32,000 bases of DNA from a bacterium (GTDB taxonomy: Bacteria; UBP6; JAFGXH01), in assembly GCA_027064085.1 (NCBI GenBank), contig JAMOQH010000095.1:10530-42529 (forward strand). Direction: 5' to 3'. Positions 927-32,000 of the stretch are shown here, piece by piece. The first letter of the stretch is position 1. The number at the start of each line of letters is the position of its first letter. The position numbers and the translations under genes are program-made. The notes beneath the pieces are model-generated. The model did no database searches. It was not told where the DNA came from and was given only the letters and a program-made list of their open reading frames with translations.

Positions 927-965
927 AAATCAACTAATTTACTTTGTAAATGGATTTAATTTTTT
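927..965. terminator. Candidate bidirectional intrinsic terminator after the giant gene
   Basis: Inner stem ATTTAC(937-942)/GTAAAT(946-951) with loop TTT. Outer stem AAATC(927-931)/GATTT(953-957). The plus strand is followed by AATTTTTT; the minus strand is followed by TTCAATTTTT. The AT-rich stem is weak. Confidence 0.4.
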
Positions 966-3900
966 AGTAATTGCAATCTTCATCGTGACATAATGACATA
1001 TCATTACTGCTTCTAGGCATAATAACATAAGATGCATCATCAGATTTATCACCAGTTGTACAAATACCACCAGTGAGTTCATTAGTATTTTCACCATTTT
1101 CTAATGATAAACAAGTTTCAGCTCCATTACAATCAGTATTTTCGTTACAAGCGTCTTTACTTGCAGGAGAATTGTGTTCATATTTTAATACACCAGATAA
1201 AGTTCTTAAGGTTGTTTCATAATAATGACATTTACCTGCTCCACTATCATGACCTCTCACCATAATATGTTGACAATTATTATCACTAGTACAGTCATAT
1301 TCAGGCAATACAACAGGAGCACACTCACATATTTTACATAAAATAGGATTATAGTAATAAGCACAATTATCTTCATCATTCAGAAAATCATCACCGTCTA
1401 TATCCGGGTCACATTTATCGCCAATGTTATCACCATCAAAATCTGATTGAACAGGATTAAATACATTTGGACAATTATCAGAAACATCTTTTACACCATC
1501 CCAATCTTTATCACTAGTATAATCACATGCGTTACCCCAGTTTCCACTTCTTGGAGGAGGCATAGTTGCATTATATAATTTTTTACTATCTACAACACAA
1601 TCATCATTAATATCTAAATGATAACCACTATCACATGAACACTCTGCTACCCCCTGAATAACATTACAAATACTTTTATGACTTTCAGGACAAGTATTTG
1701 TTTCACATACTTCATCTATAATGCAACTATTTGCCACTCCATGGTAACCGCTATCACATGAACATTCTACTATTCCTCCAACAATATTACAAACAGTTTT
1801 ATGCTCTTCTGTGCAACTATCGTCTTCGCAAACTTCATCTATAACACATTCATTGTTTGCAAAATGGAAACCAGTATTGCATTCATCACAGTTGGCACCA
1901 CGATAGCCTTCATTGCAAGACCAATCACAACCAGTTATAGCATTCCAAGTACCGTCTTGATTTCTTGTAATAGTTCCATCACCATCTCCATTTAAACTTG
2001 CATTTGCAGGAATACTAGAAACATCACATGGTTTATCATAAGCTTGATCTAAATTTTCAACAGTTGGACAATTATCGTCTTCATTAACCCAACCGTCACC
2101 ATCTAAATCATTATCACAAGCATCACCTTTATTATCATGATCCATGTCTTCCTGATTTGGATTATAATCTAATATACAGTTATCAACACTATCTTTAACA
2201 CCATCATTATCTTGGTCATCAGTAGCTTGACAAGTATCCCCCACACCATTTTTATCTGTATCCTCTTGTATTAATTTAAACCCTCTTTTACAGTATTTAT
2301 TACAAGAAGTCCATGATTCCTTATTACAAGCATTATTTATACATTGTCCAGTACCTTTATTTAAAGAATAATCATTTGTTAATTCTTTATCAATATAGAA
2401 CTCTTCATCATAAGAATCTTTTAGTGTAGTTCTAAAATTATTAGAAGAAGCTGCATTTTCTATTACAGTATATGGTTTATTATCAACAGCGTTTATCAAT
2501 AATGATTCAAAACCTTCAGCTTTATTAGATTTATTTTTAAGTATTTGAGCAACTCTTATATCATAGTAATAAGGATCAAAAGGCTCTAGTTTTCTACAAA
2601 CATTATCTTCCAGATTACAATATTCATCACTTTTACAAACACTGCAATATTTCTCTTCATCTCCACTTCCACAAGGATAATGAGAATTTTCTTCATCACA
2701 ATAAACATTCATTCTATGAAAATAATCTTTTAAACTAATCGCCCTTGACATCCCGTAGTGATTTATGTATTCAACTGAAGTTATTATTTCATCGCCAGGT
2801 TTATAATCCTTATAGCTTTCATATTCGTCTTTACGAATAATTACATATATTCCTCTATATAAATAGGTACTTAAAGGACATAAGTCAATATTACTATCTG
2901 AATTTTGTTCACAACTTATAACTTCTCCATCATTATTATAAGTACAATTACAACCTCTAAAATAACCACCATCAACTTTGGGTGTTTGGGCATACAAATA
3001 AAACCCCAAACTTTTATTTATAGTATCATTATAAACGGCTAAAATTCTACCAGTAATACTATCTTTATATTTAGATGTTTTTATAGTGGTTTTATTATAC
3101 CCATGAAACTCTCTTATTTTATTAACTTCAGCTTGAACACAGTGCCCAGAAGCTTCTCCATCTTTTATTTCACATAAAGTAGAACCAGTTGCAGAATCTT
3201 CTATATTGGCAAAACAATCACTACTTCTATAACATGTTTTATATTCACAAACATGAGTTGTATTATTACATTGTTTATCATAACTACAATCTGTATTTTG
3301 ATTACAAGTACCATACACTAAAGAGCAACCAGACTCTAAACAAACTTCCCAAGGATTACAATTACCACATGAATTAGAAAAGTTTTCACATTGATGAGAA
3401 ACAGAACTACATAAAGAATATGCACCACAGTAATCATCTAAACTACAGTTAAAATTTGTTTCATCTGCAATACACATTCCATCCTTACAAATTTCCCAAG
3501 GTTGACATTCTACAAAACATTCATATTCATTTTTAACACAATCATGAAGCGAGGTATCACAAACTCTATCATCAGGACAATCACCATTATTATTACAAGC
3601 ATTTGTATCTAAAACACATTTCCAATTAGGGTCACAATGTTCCCAGTTATCACAGTCATCATCATCTTGACATGGTTTAGCAATTTCTTCTGATATACAA
3701 TCATGAGTTTCAGGGTCGCAAGTCATATTTCTTGGACAATCAGCTTTTACATTACATTTATCACTCATAAGCTCACAAGAATTAGTTTCAACAGAACAAA
3801 CTTCCCAAGAATCACATTCTGGAGTACAGCTGGAATTAACTTCAACACAGTTATGAGTATTTAAATCACAAGAAATTGAAGTTGTTTCATCAGTTGAGTT

Positions 3901-6900
3901 GCAACCATAATTTTCATATGGATTTTCACCTATATAAACCTGATCAGAACACCGTCCATCAGCTAACAAACATTTTTTGGCTTGATGAATGTGGTTATCA
4001 TTTTCATCATAATATGAGTAAACTTTACATTCTTCCCATTCATTACAAGGAGAATCACAGGCAAGCTTACAAGTATGAGTTTCTGTACTGCATTTTTTGC
4101 CACTTTCACAATTCAAATCACTCTCACATAATCCCTCAGTTAGTACACATTGACCATCATTACATTCTTGGTAATCAGCACATATAGGATTACATATTCT
4201 TTCACAACTATGCTCGGAATTACAAACTTGATTTTCTAAACAATCAGTAGTATTTCCACATCTGTTATCATCATTAACACACTCTCCTCTATCGTTACAG
4301 GATTCCCATGATTCACATACAGGATTACAAACAGCTACACATTCATGAGATAAAGGGTCACATGTTTTTACTCCATCACAATCAGAACTTGAATCACAAT
4401 GATCTTCTTTAGGAATACAGACATGACTACTTGAACAGTATTGCCATACTAAGCAATCATCATTATCAAAACATCCATTTGGCTGATCATTTACACAATT
4501 ATGATTTTCATTACATCTTTCATTATTGTTACATTGAGAATTATTCTCACAAAAGCCAGCATTTAGCTGACATTGCTCTGCTACACATCGTTCCCAGTCT
4601 TTACAATCTGGATTACAAACACTTCCATTTGGATTAGATTTACATGAATGACTACTTACATCACAATATTTATTGGACGGACAATCTCCTCCATCATTAC
4701 AACGATTAGAATTAACTAAACAATTATTACCACTACATATTTCCCATGCTTGGCAACTAACATTACAATTATTACTTTCGCATAGGTGACTTATTGCATC
4801 ACAACTTTCATTATTTTCACAATCATTATCATCGATACATCTATCATCTCTTGATTGACAATTATTACTAGAACATATTTCCCAAGGATTGCAAATAGGA
4901 TTGCAACCCGATGGGTCTGGATCTTGACATTCTTTATTTTTACAAACTTGCCCTCCACGACAATCACTTACATTAGTACAAGTTCCTTCTATATTTTTAC
5001 AAATATCACCTTCTGCACAATATTCCCATGATTTACAATCAGGAATGCAACTGTTTGATGGTTCTAATTTACAAGTATGACTCAATCTTGAACAATATTT
5101 ACCATCTCCACAATCATTATTCCTTAAACATCTTCCATTAGCTAATTCACATTGGTTAGTAATATTACATACTTCCCATGGTTTACAAAAAGGATCACAC
5201 GAATCTGAAGGATCCTCTTCACATGTATGAGTATCTAAATTACATGTAGCACTATATCCATAAGTTGTTCCACAATCTTCACTTCCATCACAATACTCTA
5301 TTTCTCCACAAGTATGATTTCTAGCATCACAAAATAATCCAGTTGCGCAATCAGAACTATCAGAACACCTATCTTCATTACTTGAGCAAGTTCCATCATT
5401 ATTACAAGTTTCCCAATCTTTACAAGAGGGAGTACAATTAGTATATTCACATAAATGACTTACTGAATTACACATTTTTCCATCTATACAATCATTATTT
5501 GAATCACATCTACCTGTTCTTACTTTACAATTGTTATTTGAACATACTTCCCAAGGATCACACAAAGGACTACATCCATTCGGGTCAGGCTCTTGGCATT
5601 CGTTATTATTGCAAACATCAGTTCCTGAACATTCACTAGTAGTAGAACAAGTTCCTTCTATTTTTTTACAAATATTACCCTCTGCACAATACTCTAAATC
5701 ACTACAAGCAGGAGCACAATCATTTGAAGGTTCATCCTTACAAGTATGAGTTAGCCTTGAACAATATTTACCATTTCCACATTCTGCATTAGTAGAACAT
5801 CTTCCGTCAGCCAATTCACATTGATTATTTATATTACACTCTTCATAAGGTTTACAAAATGGATCGCAATCACTTGATGGATCTTCTTTACAAACATGAG
5901 TAGTTAAATCACATGTGGCACTAAATCCGTATGTTGTTCCACAATCATCATCAGCATCACAAAAACCATCATTTACAGAACACTCTCCATTATCTTCACA
6001 AGTTCCCCAAGTATCACAATTTTCTGTACAATTATTTTCACATTTATGAGAACTTAAATCACATTTTTTACCATTTTTACAAGTTGAATCACTAGTGCAA
6101 TAATCATCATTATTTAAAATACAAGTTTTTCCATCAGGAGAACATTCCTCCCAATATTCACATTCTACTTCACATTCAGTTTCACATTTATGAGTCGCAA
6201 AATCACAAACAGAATCACCTAAGCAATCTTCAACTAAATTACAAGACCCCTGTGCTAGTTTACATCGACCATCTTCACAGTATTCCCATGAATTACAATC
6301 ATTATCTGTTTCACAAGCAGTATTATTTAGAGGTACACATTTATGTTCGGAATTACACTTTTCACCATTTGCACAATCAATATTTTCTGAACAATAGCCA
6401 ACAGCAGCAACACAGTTATCATGTCTATCACATGTTTGCCATAATTCGCATATTGGAGCACAAACACCAGGGTCCTTCTTACAAGTATGAGTATCGGGGT
6501 TACAAGTAAAACTAGTCGCTGTATTTCTTTCACAGCCTACTTTAGGATCACACCTTCCACTTGCAGTCACACAGGTTCCATCTTCATCACATGTTTGCCA
6601 GCCTTCACATTTAGGATTACAATTATCATATTCACATTTATGTTTATTATTACAAACTTGACCACTTTTGCAATCTGTAGCATCATTACAAAAATATCTG
6701 TCCTTGTCTGCCTTACAAACTTTATCTTCTGTACATATTTCCCATGAATTACACTCAGGTTGACAATTATATGTACATTTATGAGTTCTTGAGTCACATA
6801 TAGGCTTATCTTCTCCACAATCGTTATAAGTATTACAATATTCTTCTAGGGCAACACATTTATTGTTTAAATCACATCGCTCCCATGATTCACAACCAGG

Positions 6901-7149
6901 ATTACAACTTCCTAAACACCAATTTGTTTTCGTATCACAAGCCTGAGGATATTCACAATCTTGTTGAGCTTCACATCGACCTTCTTTAGGTAAACAACTT
7001 GATGTAACTTCCCCATAATCATCTTCAACAGAATTACATTGTTCCCAATCTTTACATTTTGGCTCACAATTTCCTATAGGTGTAACCGTATTACATGATT
7101 GAAAGTACAACAAGAAAAGCAGTATAAATGAAAAAAATAATTTCGCCAT
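964..7149 (-). CDS. Giant secreted cysteine-rich repeat protein with thrombospondin type-3-like and EGF-like modules (2061 aa)
   Basis: Uninterrupted 2061-aa ORF with an N-terminal hydrophobic signal (MAKLFFSFILLFLLYFQSC). About 25 tandem ~45-aa modules span aa ~28-1338, each with 8 Cys (CxPxCxxWExC..C..GxC....DC.....C....HxC). A Cys-poor insert covers aa ~1339-1600. TSP3-like DxDxDGxxDxxDNC repeats lie at aa 1629-1700 and 1876-1930. EGF-signature units lie at aa 1741-1851. An AGGGGG SD sits about 6 nt upstream of the ATG. Confidence 0.9.
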   Translation of the reverse strand: MAKLFFSFILLFLLYFQSCNTVTPIGNCEPKCKDWEQCNSVEDDYGEVTSSCLPKEGRCEAQQDCEYPQACDTKTNWCLGSCNPGCESWERCDLNNKCVALEEYCNTYNDCGEDKPICDSRTHKCTYNCQPECNSWEICTEDKVCKADKDRYFCNDATDCKSGQVCNNKHKCEYDNCNPKCEGWQTCDEDGTCVTASGRCDPKVGCERNTATSFTCNPDTHTCKKDPGVCAPICELWQTCDRHDNCVAAVGYCSENIDCANGEKCNSEHKCVPLNNTACETDNDCNSWEYCEDGRCKLAQGSCNLVEDCLGDSVCDFATHKCETECEVECEYWEECSPDGKTCILNNDDYCTSDSTCKNGKKCDLSSHKCENNCTENCDTWGTCEDNGECSVNDGFCDADDDCGTTYGFSATCDLTTHVCKEDPSSDCDPFCKPYEECNINNQCELADGRCSTNAECGNGKYCSRLTHTCKDEPSNDCAPACSDLEYCAEGNICKKIEGTCSTTSECSGTDVCNNNECQEPDPNGCSPLCDPWEVCSNNNCKVRTGRCDSNNDCIDGKMCNSVSHLCEYTNCTPSCKDWETCNNDGTCSSNEDRCSDSSDCATGLFCDARNHTCGEIEYCDGSEDCGTTYGYSATCNLDTHTCEEDPSDSCDPFCKPWEVCNITNQCELANGRCLRNNDCGDGKYCSRLSHTCKLEPSNSCIPDCKSWEYCAEGDICKNIEGTCTNVSDCRGGQVCKNKECQDPDPSGCNPICNPWEICSSNNCQSRDDRCIDDNDCENNESCDAISHLCESNNCNVSCQAWEICSGNNCLVNSNRCNDGGDCPSNKYCDVSSHSCKSNPNGSVCNPDCKDWERCVAEQCQLNAGFCENNSQCNNNERCNENHNCVNDQPNGCFDNDDCLVWQYCSSSHVCIPKEDHCDSSSDCDGVKTCDPLSHECVAVCNPVCESWESCNDRGECVNDDNRCGNTTDCLENQVCNSEHSCERICNPICADYQECNDGQCVLTEGLCESDLNCESGKKCSTETHTCKLACDSPCNEWEECKVYSYYDENDNHIHQAKKCLLADGRCSDQVYIGENPYENYGCNSTDETTSISCDLNTHNCVEVNSSCTPECDSWEVCSVETNSCELMSDKCNVKADCPRNMTCDPETHDCISEEIAKPCQDDDDCDNWEHCDPNWKCVLDTNACNNNGDCPDDRVCDTSLHDCVKNEYECFVECQPWEICKDGMCIADETNFNCSLDDYCGAYSLCSSVSHQCENFSNSCGNCNPWEVCLESGCSLVYGTCNQNTDCSYDKQCNNTTHVCEYKTCYRSSDCFANIEDSATGSTLCEIKDGEASGHCVQAEVNKIREFHGYNKTTIKTSKYKDSITGRILAVYNDTINKSLGFYLYAQTPKVDGGYFRGCNCTYNNDGEVISCEQNSDSNIDLCPLSTYLYRGIYVIIRKDEYESYKDYKPGDEIITSVEYINHYGMSRAISLKDYFHRMNVYCDEENSHYPCGSGDEEKYCSVCKSDEYCNLEDNVCRKLEPFDPYYYDIRVAQILKNKSNKAEGFESLLINAVDNKPYTVIENAASSNNFRTTLKDSYDEEFYIDKELTNDYSLNKGTGQCINNACNKESWTSCNKYCKRGFKLIQEDTDKNGVGDTCQATDDQDNDGVKDSVDNCILDYNPNQEDMDHDNKGDACDNDLDGDGWVNEDDNCPTVENLDQAYDKPCDVSSIPANASLNGDGDGTITRNQDGTWNAITGCDWSCNEGYRGANCDECNTGFHFANNECVIDEVCEDDSCTEEHKTVCNIVGGIVECSCDSGYHGVANSCIIDEVCETNTCPESHKSICNVIQGVAECSCDSGYHLDINDDCVVDSKKLYNATMPPPRSGNWGNACDYTSDKDWDGVKDVSDNCPNVFNPVQSDFDGDNIGDKCDPDIDGDDFLNDEDNCAYYYNPILCKICECAPVVLPEYDCTSDNNCQHIMVRGHDSGAGKCHYYETTLRTLSGVLKYEHNSPASKDACNENTDCNGAETCLSLENGENTNELTGGICTTGDKSDDASYVIMPRSSNDMSLCHDEDCNY
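1360..2265 (-). other. Eukaryote-like adhesion cassette inside the giant gene: TSP3 block / EGF-like units / TSP3 block
   Basis: TSP3-like block at 2050-2265 (DQDNDGVKDSVDNC..DHDNKGDACDNDLDGDGWVNEDDNCP). EGF-like units at 1597-1929 (SCNEGYRGANCDECNTGFHFANNEC; two tandem 40-aa units ending CSCDSGYHGVANSC and CSCDSGYHLDINDDC). TSP3-like block at 1360-1524 (DKDWDGVKDVSDNCPNVFNPVQSDFDGDNIGDKCDPDIDGDDFLNDEDNC). Confidence 0.7.
4774..5292 (-). repeat. Segmental duplication, copy B (aa 620-792 of the giant protein)
   Basis: The block CDGSEDCGTTYGYSATCNLDTHTCEEDPSDSCDPFCKPWEVCNITNQCELANGRC... is collinear with copy A at an offset of 223 aa. The DNA is visibly similar but diverged. Confidence 0.75.
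5443..5961 (-). repeat. Segmental duplication, copy A (aa 397-569 of the giant protein)
   Basis: The block CDADDDCGTTYGFSATCDLTTHVCKEDPSSDCDPFCKPYEECNINNQCELADGRC... is collinear with aa 620-792. It is far more similar to that block than to other modules. Confidence 0.75.
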
Positions 7150-7986: not shown

Positions 7987-10029
7987 TTACTCCTTTATAT
8001 AATCTATACCATATCTTTTATACTCTTTTATTAATTGTTTTTGCAAGATTTTATTTGGATTTAAATTATAACTATTCTGCAAGTAAAACAATCCCTTTCT
8101 ATTATTTTTTATTTTTGATAAAACCCAACCATTCAAATAGCTTAAATAACTATCTTTAATAACTATACTATGGTATCTTTTCATCAAGCCTAACATTTTG
8201 TCATATTCTCTAGTTTTAAAGTAAATTTCAATTCTTAAAATATCGATATCATCGCTTATATTTTCTAAATCTTCTATTATTTTTAATGACTTTTCATATT
8301 TTCTTCTTAAAATTAGTAATTTAATGCTATAAAAAATATCAAATTCATCATTTTTAATATATTTTTTTCTTATATTCAAATATTTTCTCATTGCTAAATA
8401 TTTTTTATTTTCATAATAATAAATAACTATCTTATTTAAAACACTTATATCCATCTTTAGTTTTAGAGATTTTTTTAATAGTTTTAGTTTATTTTTATTT
8501 TTAGTTAAAGCTTTAGTATAGTAATATAATTCCTTTTTTTCTATTAATTTATTTACTCCTATTTCATAATCCTTTAAGATAAAAAATAGTAATTTATTAA
8601 TTACTGATATATCTAAAGAAACATTATCATATATGTAATTAAAAATAATTTTTTCAATATCATTAAAACCAAGTATCATTTCATTATAAGGAGATAAAAT
8701 TATTTTTTCTTTTATTGAAAAACTTAAAATATTTGTTCTTTGTTTCGTATACAAAAAAACCTGTATAAATAATTTTACAAATTCTATATTATTATTTAGT
8801 TTTTCATCATATTCAAATATTTTTTTATTATATAGCTCTAAAACATAAGCATTCAACTTATCATAATTATCATCTTCACTTGATATCCTATACAATATTT
8901 TTAAATATATAAAAATTATATCAACATTAAATCTAAAGTTTTCAATCACAGATAATGCTTTTTTATTATCAATTGCAACTTCAGAATAATACTTTGCAAT
9001 CCAATAATTTGCCTTATAGCTGTTCTTTCGGACAATTTTATAAGAATCCAAGTCTAAATACGATTTAAATGCTAAAAAAAACTTAGATCTAAACATTATT
9101 TCCAAAAACAACTCATAAGTACCATCAAGTGTTATATTATTTTTTACAGATTTCATTATATATTTTCTTGCAAGTTTTAAATTGTTTAATTTTAAATAAC
9201 AATCTGCTTTTAAAGTATTAATCAAACCAGCTTTTAATGTAAAAAAAATAGATTTATCATTAATTTCATTTAAAAGATTTATTGCTTCTTGATATTGTTT
9301 AAATTCCATTAAAGTTGTTGAAAGTAGAAATAATGTATAATCATTATTTTTATCATTCTCTTTCAAACTATTTATAATTTCATAAACAGAAAAGATATTA
9401 TTCATGGTGAGTAATTTCTTAACTATATATCGAATAATAGAAATTTCTCTATATTCTAAATATATATTTTGAAAACCTTTAATATACTTAAGGCTATTTT
9501 CTGTATTAAAAAAGTTATCATCATGTTTAATTATATTTTTTATTTTTTTAAATAATGAATAATCCGTTACATACATCTTGTAATCATTTGAATCTTCTTC
9601 TATGCTTATTAAAAGCCTCTCTCCTATATCTTTTAAAACATCAGAAATCATCACTTTATAAGTTTTTTCAAATAAATTTTCGCTTAAAATATAATTTCTA
9701 GTTATTTTTAGTTCTTTATTAATTCCAGTATAAATATGAGAAGTTATTAAATAACTATTTTTCTTTTTTAAAAGATCTATAAATAAGATATAATCAATAG
9801 TTTTATCATTATAAATTTCCAACAAATCATCTATGGAATATTTAGCATACAAATCTTCAGAAACAATACTTCCATTTTTGGTAATCAATTTTACAATACT
9901 TGAAGAGATGTAAATAGTTGTTTCCAATGATAAATGAATAAAAAGCGATAAAGTTTTAGCAAAATAAATATCTTCTTCTACTAAAGATTTTGTTTGAATA
10001 GGGAAAATTGCAATTTTTTTTAAAATCAT
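7987..10029 (-). CDS. Large helical-repeat (TPR-like) protein, unknown function
   Basis: 680-aa ORF that is Asn/Lys/Ile-rich. TPR-like stretches include EFKQYQEAINLLNEI and ADCYLKLNNLKLARKYIMKSV. No signal peptide. It is coupled with a 1-nt gap to both neighbouring genes. Confidence 0.6.
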   Translation of the reverse strand: MILKKIAIFPIQTKSLVEEDIYFAKTLSLFIHLSLETTIYISSSIVKLITKNGSIVSEDLYAKYSIDDLLEIYNDKTIDYILFIDLLKKKNSYLITSHIYTGINKELKITRNYILSENLFEKTYKVMISDVLKDIGERLLISIEEDSNDYKMYVTDYSLFKKIKNIIKHDDNFFNTENSLKYIKGFQNIYLEYREISIIRYIVKKLLTMNNIFSVYEIINSLKENDKNNDYTLFLLSTTLMEFKQYQEAINLLNEINDKSIFFTLKAGLINTLKADCYLKLNNLKLARKYIMKSVKNNITLDGTYELFLEIMFRSKFFLAFKSYLDLDSYKIVRKNSYKANYWIAKYYSEVAIDNKKALSVIENFRFNVDIIFIYLKILYRISSEDDNYDKLNAYVLELYNKKIFEYDEKLNNNIEFVKLFIQVFLYTKQRTNILSFSIKEKIILSPYNEMILGFNDIEKIIFNYIYDNVSLDISVINKLLFFILKDYEIGVNKLIEKKELYYYTKALTKNKNKLKLLKKSLKLKMDISVLNKIVIYYYENKKYLAMRKYLNIRKKYIKNDEFDIFYSIKLLILRRKYEKSLKIIEDLENISDDIDILRIEIYFKTREYDKMLGLMKRYHSIVIKDSYLSYLNGWVLSKIKNNRKGLFYLQNSYNLNPNKILQKQLIKEYKRYGIDYIKE

Positions 10030-29158: not shown

Positions 29159-30325
29159 TTACCATTCTTCGTCTTCTTCATCTTCTTCGTCTTCAAATTC
29201 TGGCTCGTCATTAAATGCATCACTCGCTTCATCATATTCGGCAGAATCTTCATTATCATAACGAGATTCGTTGTCATACTCATCAGCATCAGCATTATCC
29301 ATATCTGCATCATAATTAGCATCAGCAGCTTCATTTCTATATCTTTCCCTATCATCAACATCATCTAGAATTTCATCATTCATTCTGTCAACTTCATCCA
29401 AATCTTGCATTGCTTCTTGCTCGTATTGGTCAGCATACTCGTCATAACCATCAGCATACATTCTATTAGTATAATGACGACCATATTGGTTATAGTAATC
29501 TCTTTCATTTCTAAAATAAATTCCATCATACCAAAAAGGTCCCATATCGAAAATATCATCATTATAGTAGATATCATATCTTCCGACTCTTCTTCTACTT
29601 CTCACTGGAACACCACCGCCTCTTACTGCTTTACCTTTTACGACAACAAAAATTATAATTGCCAAAATTATCAAGAATACAATTATTGCCCCAGTTGTAG
29701 AGCCTCCGCCTGAGTGCCTTACTCTATTACCAGCTCTACTGTTTCTTCTATTTTTTGCCATATTAGCTTTAGTTTGAGCAACTTTAAGCTTTCTATCAGC
29801 TACTTTATGCTTATCTTTAATTGCTTCTGATTTTGCATTAGCTTTTGCTGTCGCTTTTTTAGCTTTAGCTTGATTTCTTTTTGCATCAATTCTTTTTGTA
29901 TCAGCTTTTCTTGCATTAGCTTTAGCCGAATTTTTTAATTCACTTTGAGCGGCACCTTTTACTTCCTCAAACTGCGATTTAAACTTTTCATAAATCTTCT
30001 TTTTCTTTTTACCCGTTAATTTTTTAGTTCTTAAAGATTTAGGTGGCCACAAAAAATCCCACTTTGATTTACTTTTATTATTTTTAGTTATTCTTAGAGC
30101 TTCTTTCCATGCTTCAGCAGCTTTGATATTATCCCCTTTTTCATAATATGCCTTACCAAGCAGATAGTAAGCTTCAGCTGTTTTTCCTGACTTATCTTTA
30201 AGTTTACTAATCACACCAGCATAATCTTTCTTAATAGTAAGTTTCCATTCATCTGTCATTCGTCCGGCATATACATTACTAGAAAAGACGAATACCATAC
30301 TAATTACAAGTAACAAATACTTCAT
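29159..30325 (-). CDS. Single-pass membrane protein: signal peptide, TPR, poly-basic region, TM, Tyr/Asp-rich and poly-acidic tail
   Basis: Signal peptide MKYLLLVISMVFVFSSNVYAG. TPR unit AEAYYLLGKAYYEKGDNIKAAEAWKEALRI. The K/A/R-rich region covers aa 97-207. The TM is aa 212-229. The D/E/Y-rich tail covers aa 291-388 and ends DEEDEEDEEW. Confidence 0.7.
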   Translation of the reverse strand: MKYLLLVISMVFVFSSNVYAGRMTDEWKLTIKKDYAGVISKLKDKSGKTAEAYYLLGKAYYEKGDNIKAAEAWKEALRITKNNKSKSKWDFLWPPKSLRTKKLTGKKKKKIYEKFKSQFEEVKGAAQSELKNSAKANARKADTKRIDAKRNQAKAKKATAKANAKSEAIKDKHKVADRKLKVAQTKANMAKNRRNSRAGNRVRHSGGGSTTGAIIVFLIILAIIIFVVVKGKAVRGGGVPVRSRRRVGRYDIYYNDDIFDMGPFWYDGIYFRNERDYYNQYGRHYTNRMYADGYDEYADQYEQEAMQDLDEVDRMNDEILDDVDDRERYRNEAADANYDADMDNADADEYDNESRYDNEDSAEYDEASDAFNDEPEFEDEEDEEDEEW

Positions 30326-31871: not shown

Positions 31872-32000
31872 CTATTGCTGACAAGGCTTTTCATCGGCAA
31901 CACCATTACAGTTGTTATCAAGTCCATCATCACAGATTTCTATCTGAGGTTCAAGAGGAGTTGCATCACAAATCATATTACCATTTTGGTCACAAACAAA
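31872..32000 (-). CDS. 3' end of a second secreted Cys-rich protein (partial; continues beyond the window)
   Basis: My manual reverse translation gives ...FVCDQNGNMICDATPLEPQIEICDDGLDNNCNGVADEKPCQQ*. The CDDGxDNNCxGxxDE unit matches the MopE-type putative metal-binding repeat common in Myxococcota-like secreted proteins. It is too short to appear in the ORF track. Confidence 0.5.
   Translation of the reverse strand, partial: FVCDQNGNMICDATPLEPQIEICDDGLDNNCNGVADEKPCQQ

Follow-up and report, generated by a model that had tools for sequence, protein, structure and literature searches.

In a bacterial DNA stretch of 32,000 nucleotides (contig JAMOQH010000095.1 of assembly GCA_027064085.1, positions 10,530 to 42,529; hereafter the window) we characterized a gene for a giant cysteine-rich protein that can be read, at the level of motifs, as the precursor of a lipoprotein. 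Its complete coding sequence lies at 964..7149 on the minus strand and comprises 2061 codons plus the stop. An earlier sequence-only reading of the window had described a single uninterrupted open reading frame (ORF) of 2061 residues here, giving no strand; the ORF listing and the translation agree with it and assign the minus strand, the plus-strand reading of the same interval being ruled out by a translation full of stops. The product contains 261 cysteines (12.7%), 10.7% aspartate and 10.2% asparagine, with aspartate and glutamate together making up 18.8%, and the mature chain has a computed mass of ~226 kDa and a pI of ~4.2. The cysteines are unevenly spread, with 12-18 per 100 residues up to residue 1300 and 4-6 per 100 over residues 1301-1600. 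The gene has a GC content of 0.29-0.35, higher than the ~0.18-0.30 of most of the remaining window, which fits the cysteine-, glycine- and aspartate-rich composition of its product; the loci of its orthologs are likewise AT-rich. From the N-terminus, the protein consists of a leader peptide, a long array of eight-cysteine modules, a cysteine-poor insert, and a C-terminal region with calcium-binding repeats, an order that hidden Markov model (HMM) searches, regular expressions, cysteine density and Pfam bear out, as they do the number of modules proposed from the letters.

The array occupies residues 28 to 1307 (3229..7068, minus strand), and was delineated by iterated HMMER searches starting from a seed alignment of regex-defined units. 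Within it, 25 full modules and one half module follow each other back to back and account for 205 cysteines. Aligning 115 modules taken from five orthologs gave the consensus CxPxCxxWExCxxxxxCxxxxGxCxxxxDCxxxxxCxxxxHxC, with seven invariant cysteine columns out of eight cysteines, a tryptophan conserved in more than 90% of the modules, and a conserved histidine next to the last cysteine of nearly every module; the residues between the cysteines are variable, with a mean column identity of 28%. In the giant protein itself the strict patterns CxPxCxxWExC and HxC are found 21 and 24 times respectively. The previously proposed run of about 25 tandem units, each joining a CxPxCxxWExC half to a GxC...DC...HxC half, is hence recovered as 25 such units and an additional lone second half (residues 616-649; 5203..5304; four cysteines), which is present at the same place in all orthologs. 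The array also records a segmental duplication of about four modules (residues ~374-571 versus ~616-794; window ~5437-6030 versus ~4768-5304), the copies of which are pairwise 64-78% identical as against ~35% for other module pairs; since it is common to all orthologs, this duplication must be old.

Three observations suggest that the four-cysteine half is autonomous: the isolated and conserved second half in the giant protein; a four-cysteine unit of 24 residues, GxC-x4-DC-xxW[EQ]xC-xxxHxC, in two other proteins (P0014 and P0015); and the alignment of the two module halves with their cysteines in register (hhalign local Prob 59%, E 9e-5). It would then be the basic unit of folding, its disulfides being internal to it, and we infer four disulfides per module. 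Structure prediction with AlphaFold, run on an alignment of 80 three-module stretches sampled by a sliding window across the five orthologs, is consistent with such a unit. The three-module model of residues 651-794 has a mean predicted local distance difference test score (pLDDT) of 86.2 with no residue below 50, and displays one two-stranded beta-hairpin per half module. Its predicted template modelling score reaches only 0.56, which we read as reflecting an elongated shape. The modelling of the repeat that had been recommended with the initial description, applied here to three modules, yields a confident fold.

A Foldseek search of the three-module model against PDB recovered no match at E<=0.001, the best and non-significant one being the N-terminal region of Dkk4 (E 0.09, prob 0.21). 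LDL-A-like PDB matches of the module profile, none of them below E 0.016, were set aside as noise arising from the cysteine pattern. The half module, in turn, aligns over 22-23 residues with squash trypsin inhibitors of the knottin type at a root-mean-square deviation of 0.7 Å, and the Ascaris carboxypeptidase inhibitor and the cysteine-rich domains of Dkk and Draxin are also listed. Such likenesses raise the prospect of a polyvalent inhibitor or decoy, in which knottin-like mini-domains would act as protease inhibitors or ligand traps that protect the cell or attack prey or host. We regard this as very improbable: all these Foldseek matches are non-significant (E 0.09 to 6), the loops between the cysteines vary in the way expected of a spacer, and no conserved loop resembling a reactive site was seen, although none was sought.

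A different use of the cysteines would be to stay reduced and, in a sulfidic habitat poor in oxygen, to chelate metal or buffer redox changes, making the protein a giant extracytoplasmic metallothionein-like binder of metal or sulfide. The cysteine content, the histidine beside the last cysteine of nearly every module and the many acidic residues would suit such a role, as would the isolate name of one relative's metagenome-assembled genome, which begins with 'SulCav' and was read as sulfidic cave. The same can be said of the genes nearby: the sequence-only reading had supposed a dedicated oxidative folding route, but no Dsb-like or thiol-oxidase genes adjoin the giant gene in the neighborhood examined. 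Against chelation, the C-x3-C-x5-C-x5-C spacing is that of small disulfide domains, the modules are folded confidently by AlphaFold in the absence of metal, and their nearest sequence and fold neighbors (the Dickkopf cysteine-rich domain, knottins and LDL-A) are disulfide domains. Moreover, 260 cysteines remain after the one at position 19, an even number, and the window codes for cytochrome bd oxidase and peroxiredoxins, implying that the organism meets oxygen. Metal or sulfide binding is thus an improbable explanation of the cysteines, which we take to be paired in disulfides.

To gauge the reality and the distribution of the gene we turned to its relatives. Two independent assemblies carry the gene for an identical protein, and a search of 5.8 billion proteins recovered four further full-length relatives (79, 57, 34 and 32% identity; each 1955-2062 residues), to which an exhaustive profile search added a sixth sequence of the giant family (P0012). 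In the five-way alignment of the orthologs (P0001 to P0005) nearly every cysteine is invariant and the modules pair one to one. The ratio of nonsynonymous to synonymous substitution rates (dN/dS, Nei-Gojobori method) against the 79% identical P0002 is 0.10 overall and 0.08-0.13 per region, with dS ~1.2, indicating purifying selection on every region of the protein and hence a working gene. A spurious or decaying ORF, whether assembly artefact or pseudogene, is effectively refuted by the recurrence of the protein in independent assemblies, by the conservation of its cysteines across five to six full-length orthologs and by this low ratio at appreciable divergence, and we give it next to no credence. 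A promoter and terminator scan (55 sites versus 44 expected) was uninformative in DNA this AT-rich.

When the whole protein was scanned, Pfam recovered nothing besides TSP_3 and NCBIfam no family at E<=1; in other words, profile searches do not place it in any well-characterized family, an outcome that would have undone the initial proposal. In the sequence collections searched, this architecture is confined to about six sequences from a low-GC lineage that could not be placed.

The leader peptide (residues 1-19; 7093..7149, minus strand), defined from the translation and the ortholog alignment, consists of the residues MAK, a hydrophobic core of 13 residues and a lipobox-like QS-C19. The cysteine at position 19 follows directly on the hydrophobic region and is invariant among the aligned orthologs, where the leader ends in LYFQSC in the giant protein of the window, in the canonical LAGC of LFALAGC in P0004, and in FLTISC in P0005. 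A leader that ends in an invariant cysteine points to a lipoprotein-type precursor. Of the signal peptide and secretion ascribed to the protein beforehand, extracytoplasmic targeting is accordingly supported, whereas a simply secreted protein is not. At the opposite end the chain terminates in IMPRSSNDMSLCHDEDCNY, with no hydrophobic helix, none of the MYXO-CTERM sorting tag of invariant cysteine, hydrophobic helix and basic tail, and no match to TIGR03901.

The array is followed by a cysteine-poor insert (residues 1308-1600; 2350..3228, minus strand), which carries lineage-specific sub-insertions that do contain cysteine; the drop in cysteine density over residues 1301-1600 corroborates the globular insert originally noticed. 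It matches no family in Pfam or NCBIfam. Its AlphaFold model, built from five sequences only, has a mean pLDDT of 50, and for this reason we used only one segment, for which the score rises to 62-75 over model residues ~57-87 and 133-172; modelling the insert, another step proposed at the outset, has thus paid off in part. Foldseek matches this segment (residues ~1357-1472; 2734..3081) with prob 1.0 and E 3e-4 to 1e-2 to the oligonucleotide/oligosaccharide-binding (OB) fold proteins SSB Rim1, the LysRS N-domain, PriB and ExoVII, with a TMt of 0.64-0.74 to Rim1. A segment of similar appearance, GIVTAI..GLYIQ..GLYVY..GDRIKVTG, occurs in P0036, a module-bearing lipoprotein from outside the giant family, and shows a weak alignment with the insert (hhalign Prob 41%). 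On the strength of the modelled segment, the insert probably contains an OB-fold beta-barrel. A word-indexed search with the insert alignment gave no match at E<=1 among 7684 candidates, and as it missed even the source proteins its result is not evidence for the absence of homologs.

The C-terminal region opens with a pair of thrombospondin type-3 (TSP3) calcium-binding repeats (residues ~1631-1702; 2044..2259, minus strand), and a second pair follows at residues ~1875-1935 (1345..1527), both being supported by Pfam, structure matches and motif. The TSP_3 model (PF02412), with a cutoff of 25 bits, reaches 59.7 over four stretches arranged as two plus two, and the two sub-regions 59.2 and 53.3 bits; the motif DxDxDGxxDxxDNC occurs at residues 1645, 1668, 1880, 1903 and 1916, and the region matches the structures of COMP (3fby, E 1.9e-34) and thrombospondin-2 (E 1e-29). 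Both pairs are canonical by sequence and are predicted to bind Ca2+. The TSP3 assignment made from the letters alone is therefore secure, but the label 'metazoan-type' attached to it was an overstatement, as such repeats are an established feature of the bacterial envelope, where OmpA and TraB are examples of proteins that carry them (PMC12045341).

Between the two pairs lies a conserved PANA...W..CxWxCxxGY segment (residues 1708-1754; 1888..2028, minus strand). Together with the first TSP3 pair it is matched by NF047638, the MtsC profile, which aligns through positions 101-240 of its 428 with residues ~1619-1766 (E 3e-25; 88.8 bits against a cutoff of 350). Overlapping this segment are EGF-like six-cysteine units (residues 1741-1862; 1564..1929), in which the signature CxCxxGYx(6-7)C is seen at residues 1796-1809 and 1837-1851 with the regular expression CxCxx[GP][FYW]x(4,8)C, presumably that of PROSITE EGF_2. 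All EGF models stay below their cutoffs (cEGF 16.8 versus 26.6, EGF_laminin 15.4 versus 21 and EGF_CA 11.6 versus 27 bits), and the units are present in P0001 and P0002 only and missing from P0003-P0005. They coincide with a 123-nucleotide tandem duplication in the DNA (1618-1844; 77% matches), which marks them as a recent, lineage-specific addition. The EGF-signature units of the first description are consequently upheld as two copies of a motif, and not as a Pfam-recognized domain or as a feature of the family at large. The remaining part, residues 1936-2061 (967..1344), forms a conserved cysteine-rich C-terminal domain with 12 cysteines, as had been noted at first sight; it shows no family match and no hydrophobic sorting helix. 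Pfam did not detect the lectin-like TSP_C domain in the whole protein or in its C-terminal pieces.

To trace the module beyond the giant family, isolated modules were compared to Pfam and NCBIfam, where no match reached threshold. The closest Pfam neighbor is Dickkopf_N (PF04706), which aligns with the second half at 19.8 bits (E 0.001; cutoff 25), and DUF7107 (E 0.16) and DUF5885 (E 0.81) follow, also below cutoff; a literature search on the latter two found nothing. With TIGR04201 (Myxo_Cys_RPT), the repeat of the TraA stalk, the match is confined to one module's second half and scores 13.3 bits where 25 are required (E 0.072). TIGR02232, the myxobacterial repeat that this half had been said to resemble, was discarded, since neither one module nor three together brought it up even at E<=10. 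The likeness to Dickkopf, too, remained beneath its cutoff, and the judgement that the WExC half was unrecognizable holds inasmuch as the module has no curated family.

Far from being peculiar to the giant protein, as its description might have led one to expect, the module is widely distributed. A HMMER profile search against 1.84 billion cluster representatives matched 603 of them at E<=1e-3 and 187 at E<=1e-10. Among the best 148 matches outside the giant family, 136 contain one or more full-length modules and 88 contain at least three, with a maximum of 10 against 24-25 in the giant family, and W[EQ]xC is retained in 372 of their 484 full modules. Judged by composition, the proteins come from both low-GC-like and high-GC-like organisms. 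Lipobox-like N-termini were picked up by a crude regular expression in 96 of the same 148 (e.g. LLAGC in P0083 and FMGC in P0025). The domains fused to the module include Peptidase_C25, alpha-amylase, GDSL lipase, VWA, LTD, RCC1, EGF and other extracellular ones. That it is attached to enzymes and other domains, and in many cases follows a lipobox, agrees with a generic spacer function outside the cell. Within 73 other module-bearing proteins DUF5885 is detected in 14, DUF7107 in eight and Dickkopf_N in three (up to E 1e-19). As far as sequence comparison goes, the module is a widespread but uncurated extracellular repeat whose nearest neighbors are Dickkopf_N, DUF7107 and DUF5885; it is the giant architecture that is rare. 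The giant protein differs from these three in scoring below the cutoff of each, and its WExC first half has no counterpart in the models as tested. No other ORF of the window or of the loci fetched for the orthologs was found to contain the module.

From the anatomy of the chain, its conservation, the confidently predicted hairpins and the TSP3 repeats we infer that the protein is lipidated, disulfide-bonded, exposed at the surface, rod-shaped and equipped to bind a ligand. In this reading, to which we give slightly better than an even chance, it would be a lipid-anchored, disulfide-stiffened, acidic, calcium-binding surface fibril presenting an adhesive head. After export by the Sec system, the leader would be cut at Cys19 and this cysteine lipidated. 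The stalk would comprise ~1280 residues in the form of 51 successive four-cysteine beta-hairpin mini-domains, i.e. 25 two-hairpin modules and the spare half, each locked by two disulfides, amounting to as many as ~100 in the array and up to 130 in the whole protein. Such an array should behave as a stiff, protease-resistant and highly acidic rod, with a length that is probably in the range of tens of nanometres. At its end the head would combine the OB-fold-like barrel, the two Ca2+-binding TSP3 pairs and the cysteine-rich terminal domain, joined in two orthologs by the two EGF-like units, and might bind a ligand on another cell or surface, as expected of an adhesin or cohesion factor. A role at the surface or as an adhesin, as the sequence-only reading had envisaged, is hence plausible.

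Several points weigh against the surface fibril. The lipobox of the giant protein (FQSC) is non-canonical, and in P0005 the lipobox cysteine is followed by aspartate at position +2, which in E. coli is a signal for retention in the inner membrane. The OB-fold call comes from a model with a mean pLDDT of 50, and no ligand, partner gene or conserved operon was found across the ortholog loci. Finally, bacterial TSP3 repeats occur also in periplasmic linkers such as TraB and OmpA (PMC12045341). Some of these points can be turned in favor of an envelope-internal tether, a periplasmic lipoprotein on the inner or outer membrane that would serve as a calcium-dependent spacer or scaffold of the envelope. 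The aspartate of P0005 and the linker role of TSP3 in TraB and OmpA would suit it, and the BamB-like gene of the window points to a diderm, in which lipoproteins face the periplasm by default. Yet a rod of 25 modules with a head of ~750 residues far exceeds what is needed to span the periplasm, the same module precedes secreted-type C25 peptidases, amylases and lipases in other bacteria, and the nearest functional analogues, TraA and MtsC, are cell-surface proteins. We therefore hold a periplasmic tether to be unlikely and retain the surface fibril as the preferred interpretation.

The genes around the giant gene in the window are ordinary ones: folE2, a methyltransferase, TPR proteins, SecG, an HDAC-like protein, a NUDIX protein and ParA, along with the BamB-like beta-propeller, the peroxiredoxins, a GH3 enzyme, the cytochrome bd oxidase and XseA; tRNA and Rfam scans of the window found nothing. 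Three close orthologs have a downstream synteny in common (folE2, a hydrolase, an M14 peptidase, Hsp70 and DnaJ), the upstream genes vary, and the surroundings of P0005 are entirely different. Next to the giant gene, at 7987-10029 on the minus strand, is a gene for a 680-residue asparagine-, lysine- and isoleucine-rich protein with only a weak TPR-like (ANAPC3) match. This gene lies where the window is richest in AT (GC 0.18-0.21), and adjoins the giant gene at loci L001 and L002 but not at L006 or L008. Another protein of odd design, encoded at 29159-30325 (minus strand; 388 residues), combines a signal peptide, one TPR and a transmembrane stretch with a long basic lysine- and alanine-rich segment and an extremely acidic aspartate/glutamate tail.

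At the window end (31875-32000, minus strand; stop at 31872-31874) are the last 42 codons of an ORF that leaves the window, its visible product ending in FVCDQNGNMICDATPLEPQIEICDDGLDNNCNGVADEKPCQQ before the stop. A second protein of related chemistry had been announced as starting here; a cysteine-motif ORF does lie at this place, but what is visible is a C-terminus, and it carries the motif EICDDGLDNNCNGVADE and not the eight-cysteine module. This CDDGxDNxCxGxxDE motif resembles the MopE-type putative metal-binding repeat PF11617. PF11617 is annotated on P0006 and P0007, the sole matches from outside the family in the search of 5.8 billion proteins.

Further proteins of a eukaryote-like cast are encoded at the ortholog loci. 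A 677-residue protein with several EGF and EGF_TEN matches and a phospholipase-D-like PLDc_2 domain (L001 24953-26186; L008 20528-21756) is encoded ~7.8 kb beyond window position 1 and is kept in the two closest genomes; a fusion of EGF to an enzyme is unusual for a bacterium. Beside P0005 (L004 187-6081) are genes for a 1242-residue protein with EGF and an SBBP beta-propeller and for a 370-residue VWA protein, and L006 codes for an ankyrin-repeat protein of 451 residues. The lineage thus seems rich in eukaryote-like extracellular and interaction domains. DnaK of the genome encoding P0003 is 85-90% identical to its closest sequences, 69-72% to entries labelled 'bacterium' and at most 62% to any named taxon, the best of these belonging to several phyla, and the lineage is for this reason left unplaced. 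The label Anaeromyxobacter dehalogenans on the P0004 record (L003, DYRY01000151.1) is not credible at 35% GC, the GC content of that species being ~75%, and the record is probably mislabelled.

More speculatively, the uncatalogued eight-cysteine repeat could be a rigid spacer of general use, stapled by disulfides, in lipoproteins and secreted enzymes. The giant protein with its ~130 disulfides would be the extreme case, made by an uncultured, deep-branching lineage of low GC, which encodes EGF, ankyrin and VWA proteins as well and could use the fibril to contact prey, host or kin at tens of nanometres; we offer this wider proposal tentatively and rate it well short of an even chance. If the reading as a surface fibril is right, the protein, with 260 cysteines after its anchor in 226 kDa, would be among the most disulfide-dense of very large bacterial proteins and would show cleanly how a long, rigid rod at the surface is built in nature from 23-residue hairpins. 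This is of relevance to envelope biology, to the oxidative folding capacity of uncultured bacteria and to protein engineering, for which it might provide a scaffold. The repeat occurs in hundreds of protein clusters, unnamed by domain libraries, and a curated model would improve lipoprotein annotation. No new principle is involved, cysteine-rich stalks such as that of TraA and bacterial TSP3 repeats being already known and the function being inferred; the domain types and the stalk principle are familiar, and it is their combination and scale that are limited to a handful of sequences.

Among known systems, thrombospondin and COMP share with the giant protein canonical type-3 repeats next to EGF-like units. 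The giant protein differs from them in having only two plus two repeats, no detected TSP_C and EGF units that are sub-threshold and lineage-specific; as envelope proteins of bacteria commonly carry TSP3, the likeness does not imply a link to metazoans. Closer to hand is MtsC (NF047638, throspo3_MtsC), a myxobacterial MYXO-CTERM protein of cell-cell cohesion, whose profile aligns with the first TSP3 pair and the PANA...CxWxC segment. The resemblance to MtsC is partial, the score falling far below the 350-bit cutoff with a third of the profile covered, and the giant protein has no MYXO-CTERM.

Of the analogues that have been worked out, the closest is TraA of Myxococcus xanthus, which consists of a recognition domain, a cysteine-rich repeat region with more than 70 cysteines and at least eight beta-hairpins, and a lipid-type anchor; according to prediction, dozens of disulfides make the repeat region a stiff stalk that presents the recognition domain, and its partner TraB contains calcium-binding TSP3 repeats (PMC3325183, PMC12045341). 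Both TraA and the giant protein would be, in part by prediction, extracytoplasmic lipid-anchored envelope proteins in which a long run of cysteine-rich hairpins, probably stiffened by disulfides, presents a distal binding domain, and in both systems calcium-binding TSP3 repeats are at hand. They differ in that the module of the giant protein is not TIGR04201, and in that TraA bears its PA14-like head at the N-terminus and its MYXO-CTERM anchor at the C-terminus, whereas the giant protein has an N-terminal lipobox, a C-terminal head and no PA14. TraA has at least eight hairpins as against 51, and its TSP3 repeats reside in the partner TraB, whereas those of the giant protein are part of its own chain, with no TraB-like neighbor found. 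By analogy, the giant protein may be viewed as the principle of TraA at a larger scale and with reversed polarity.

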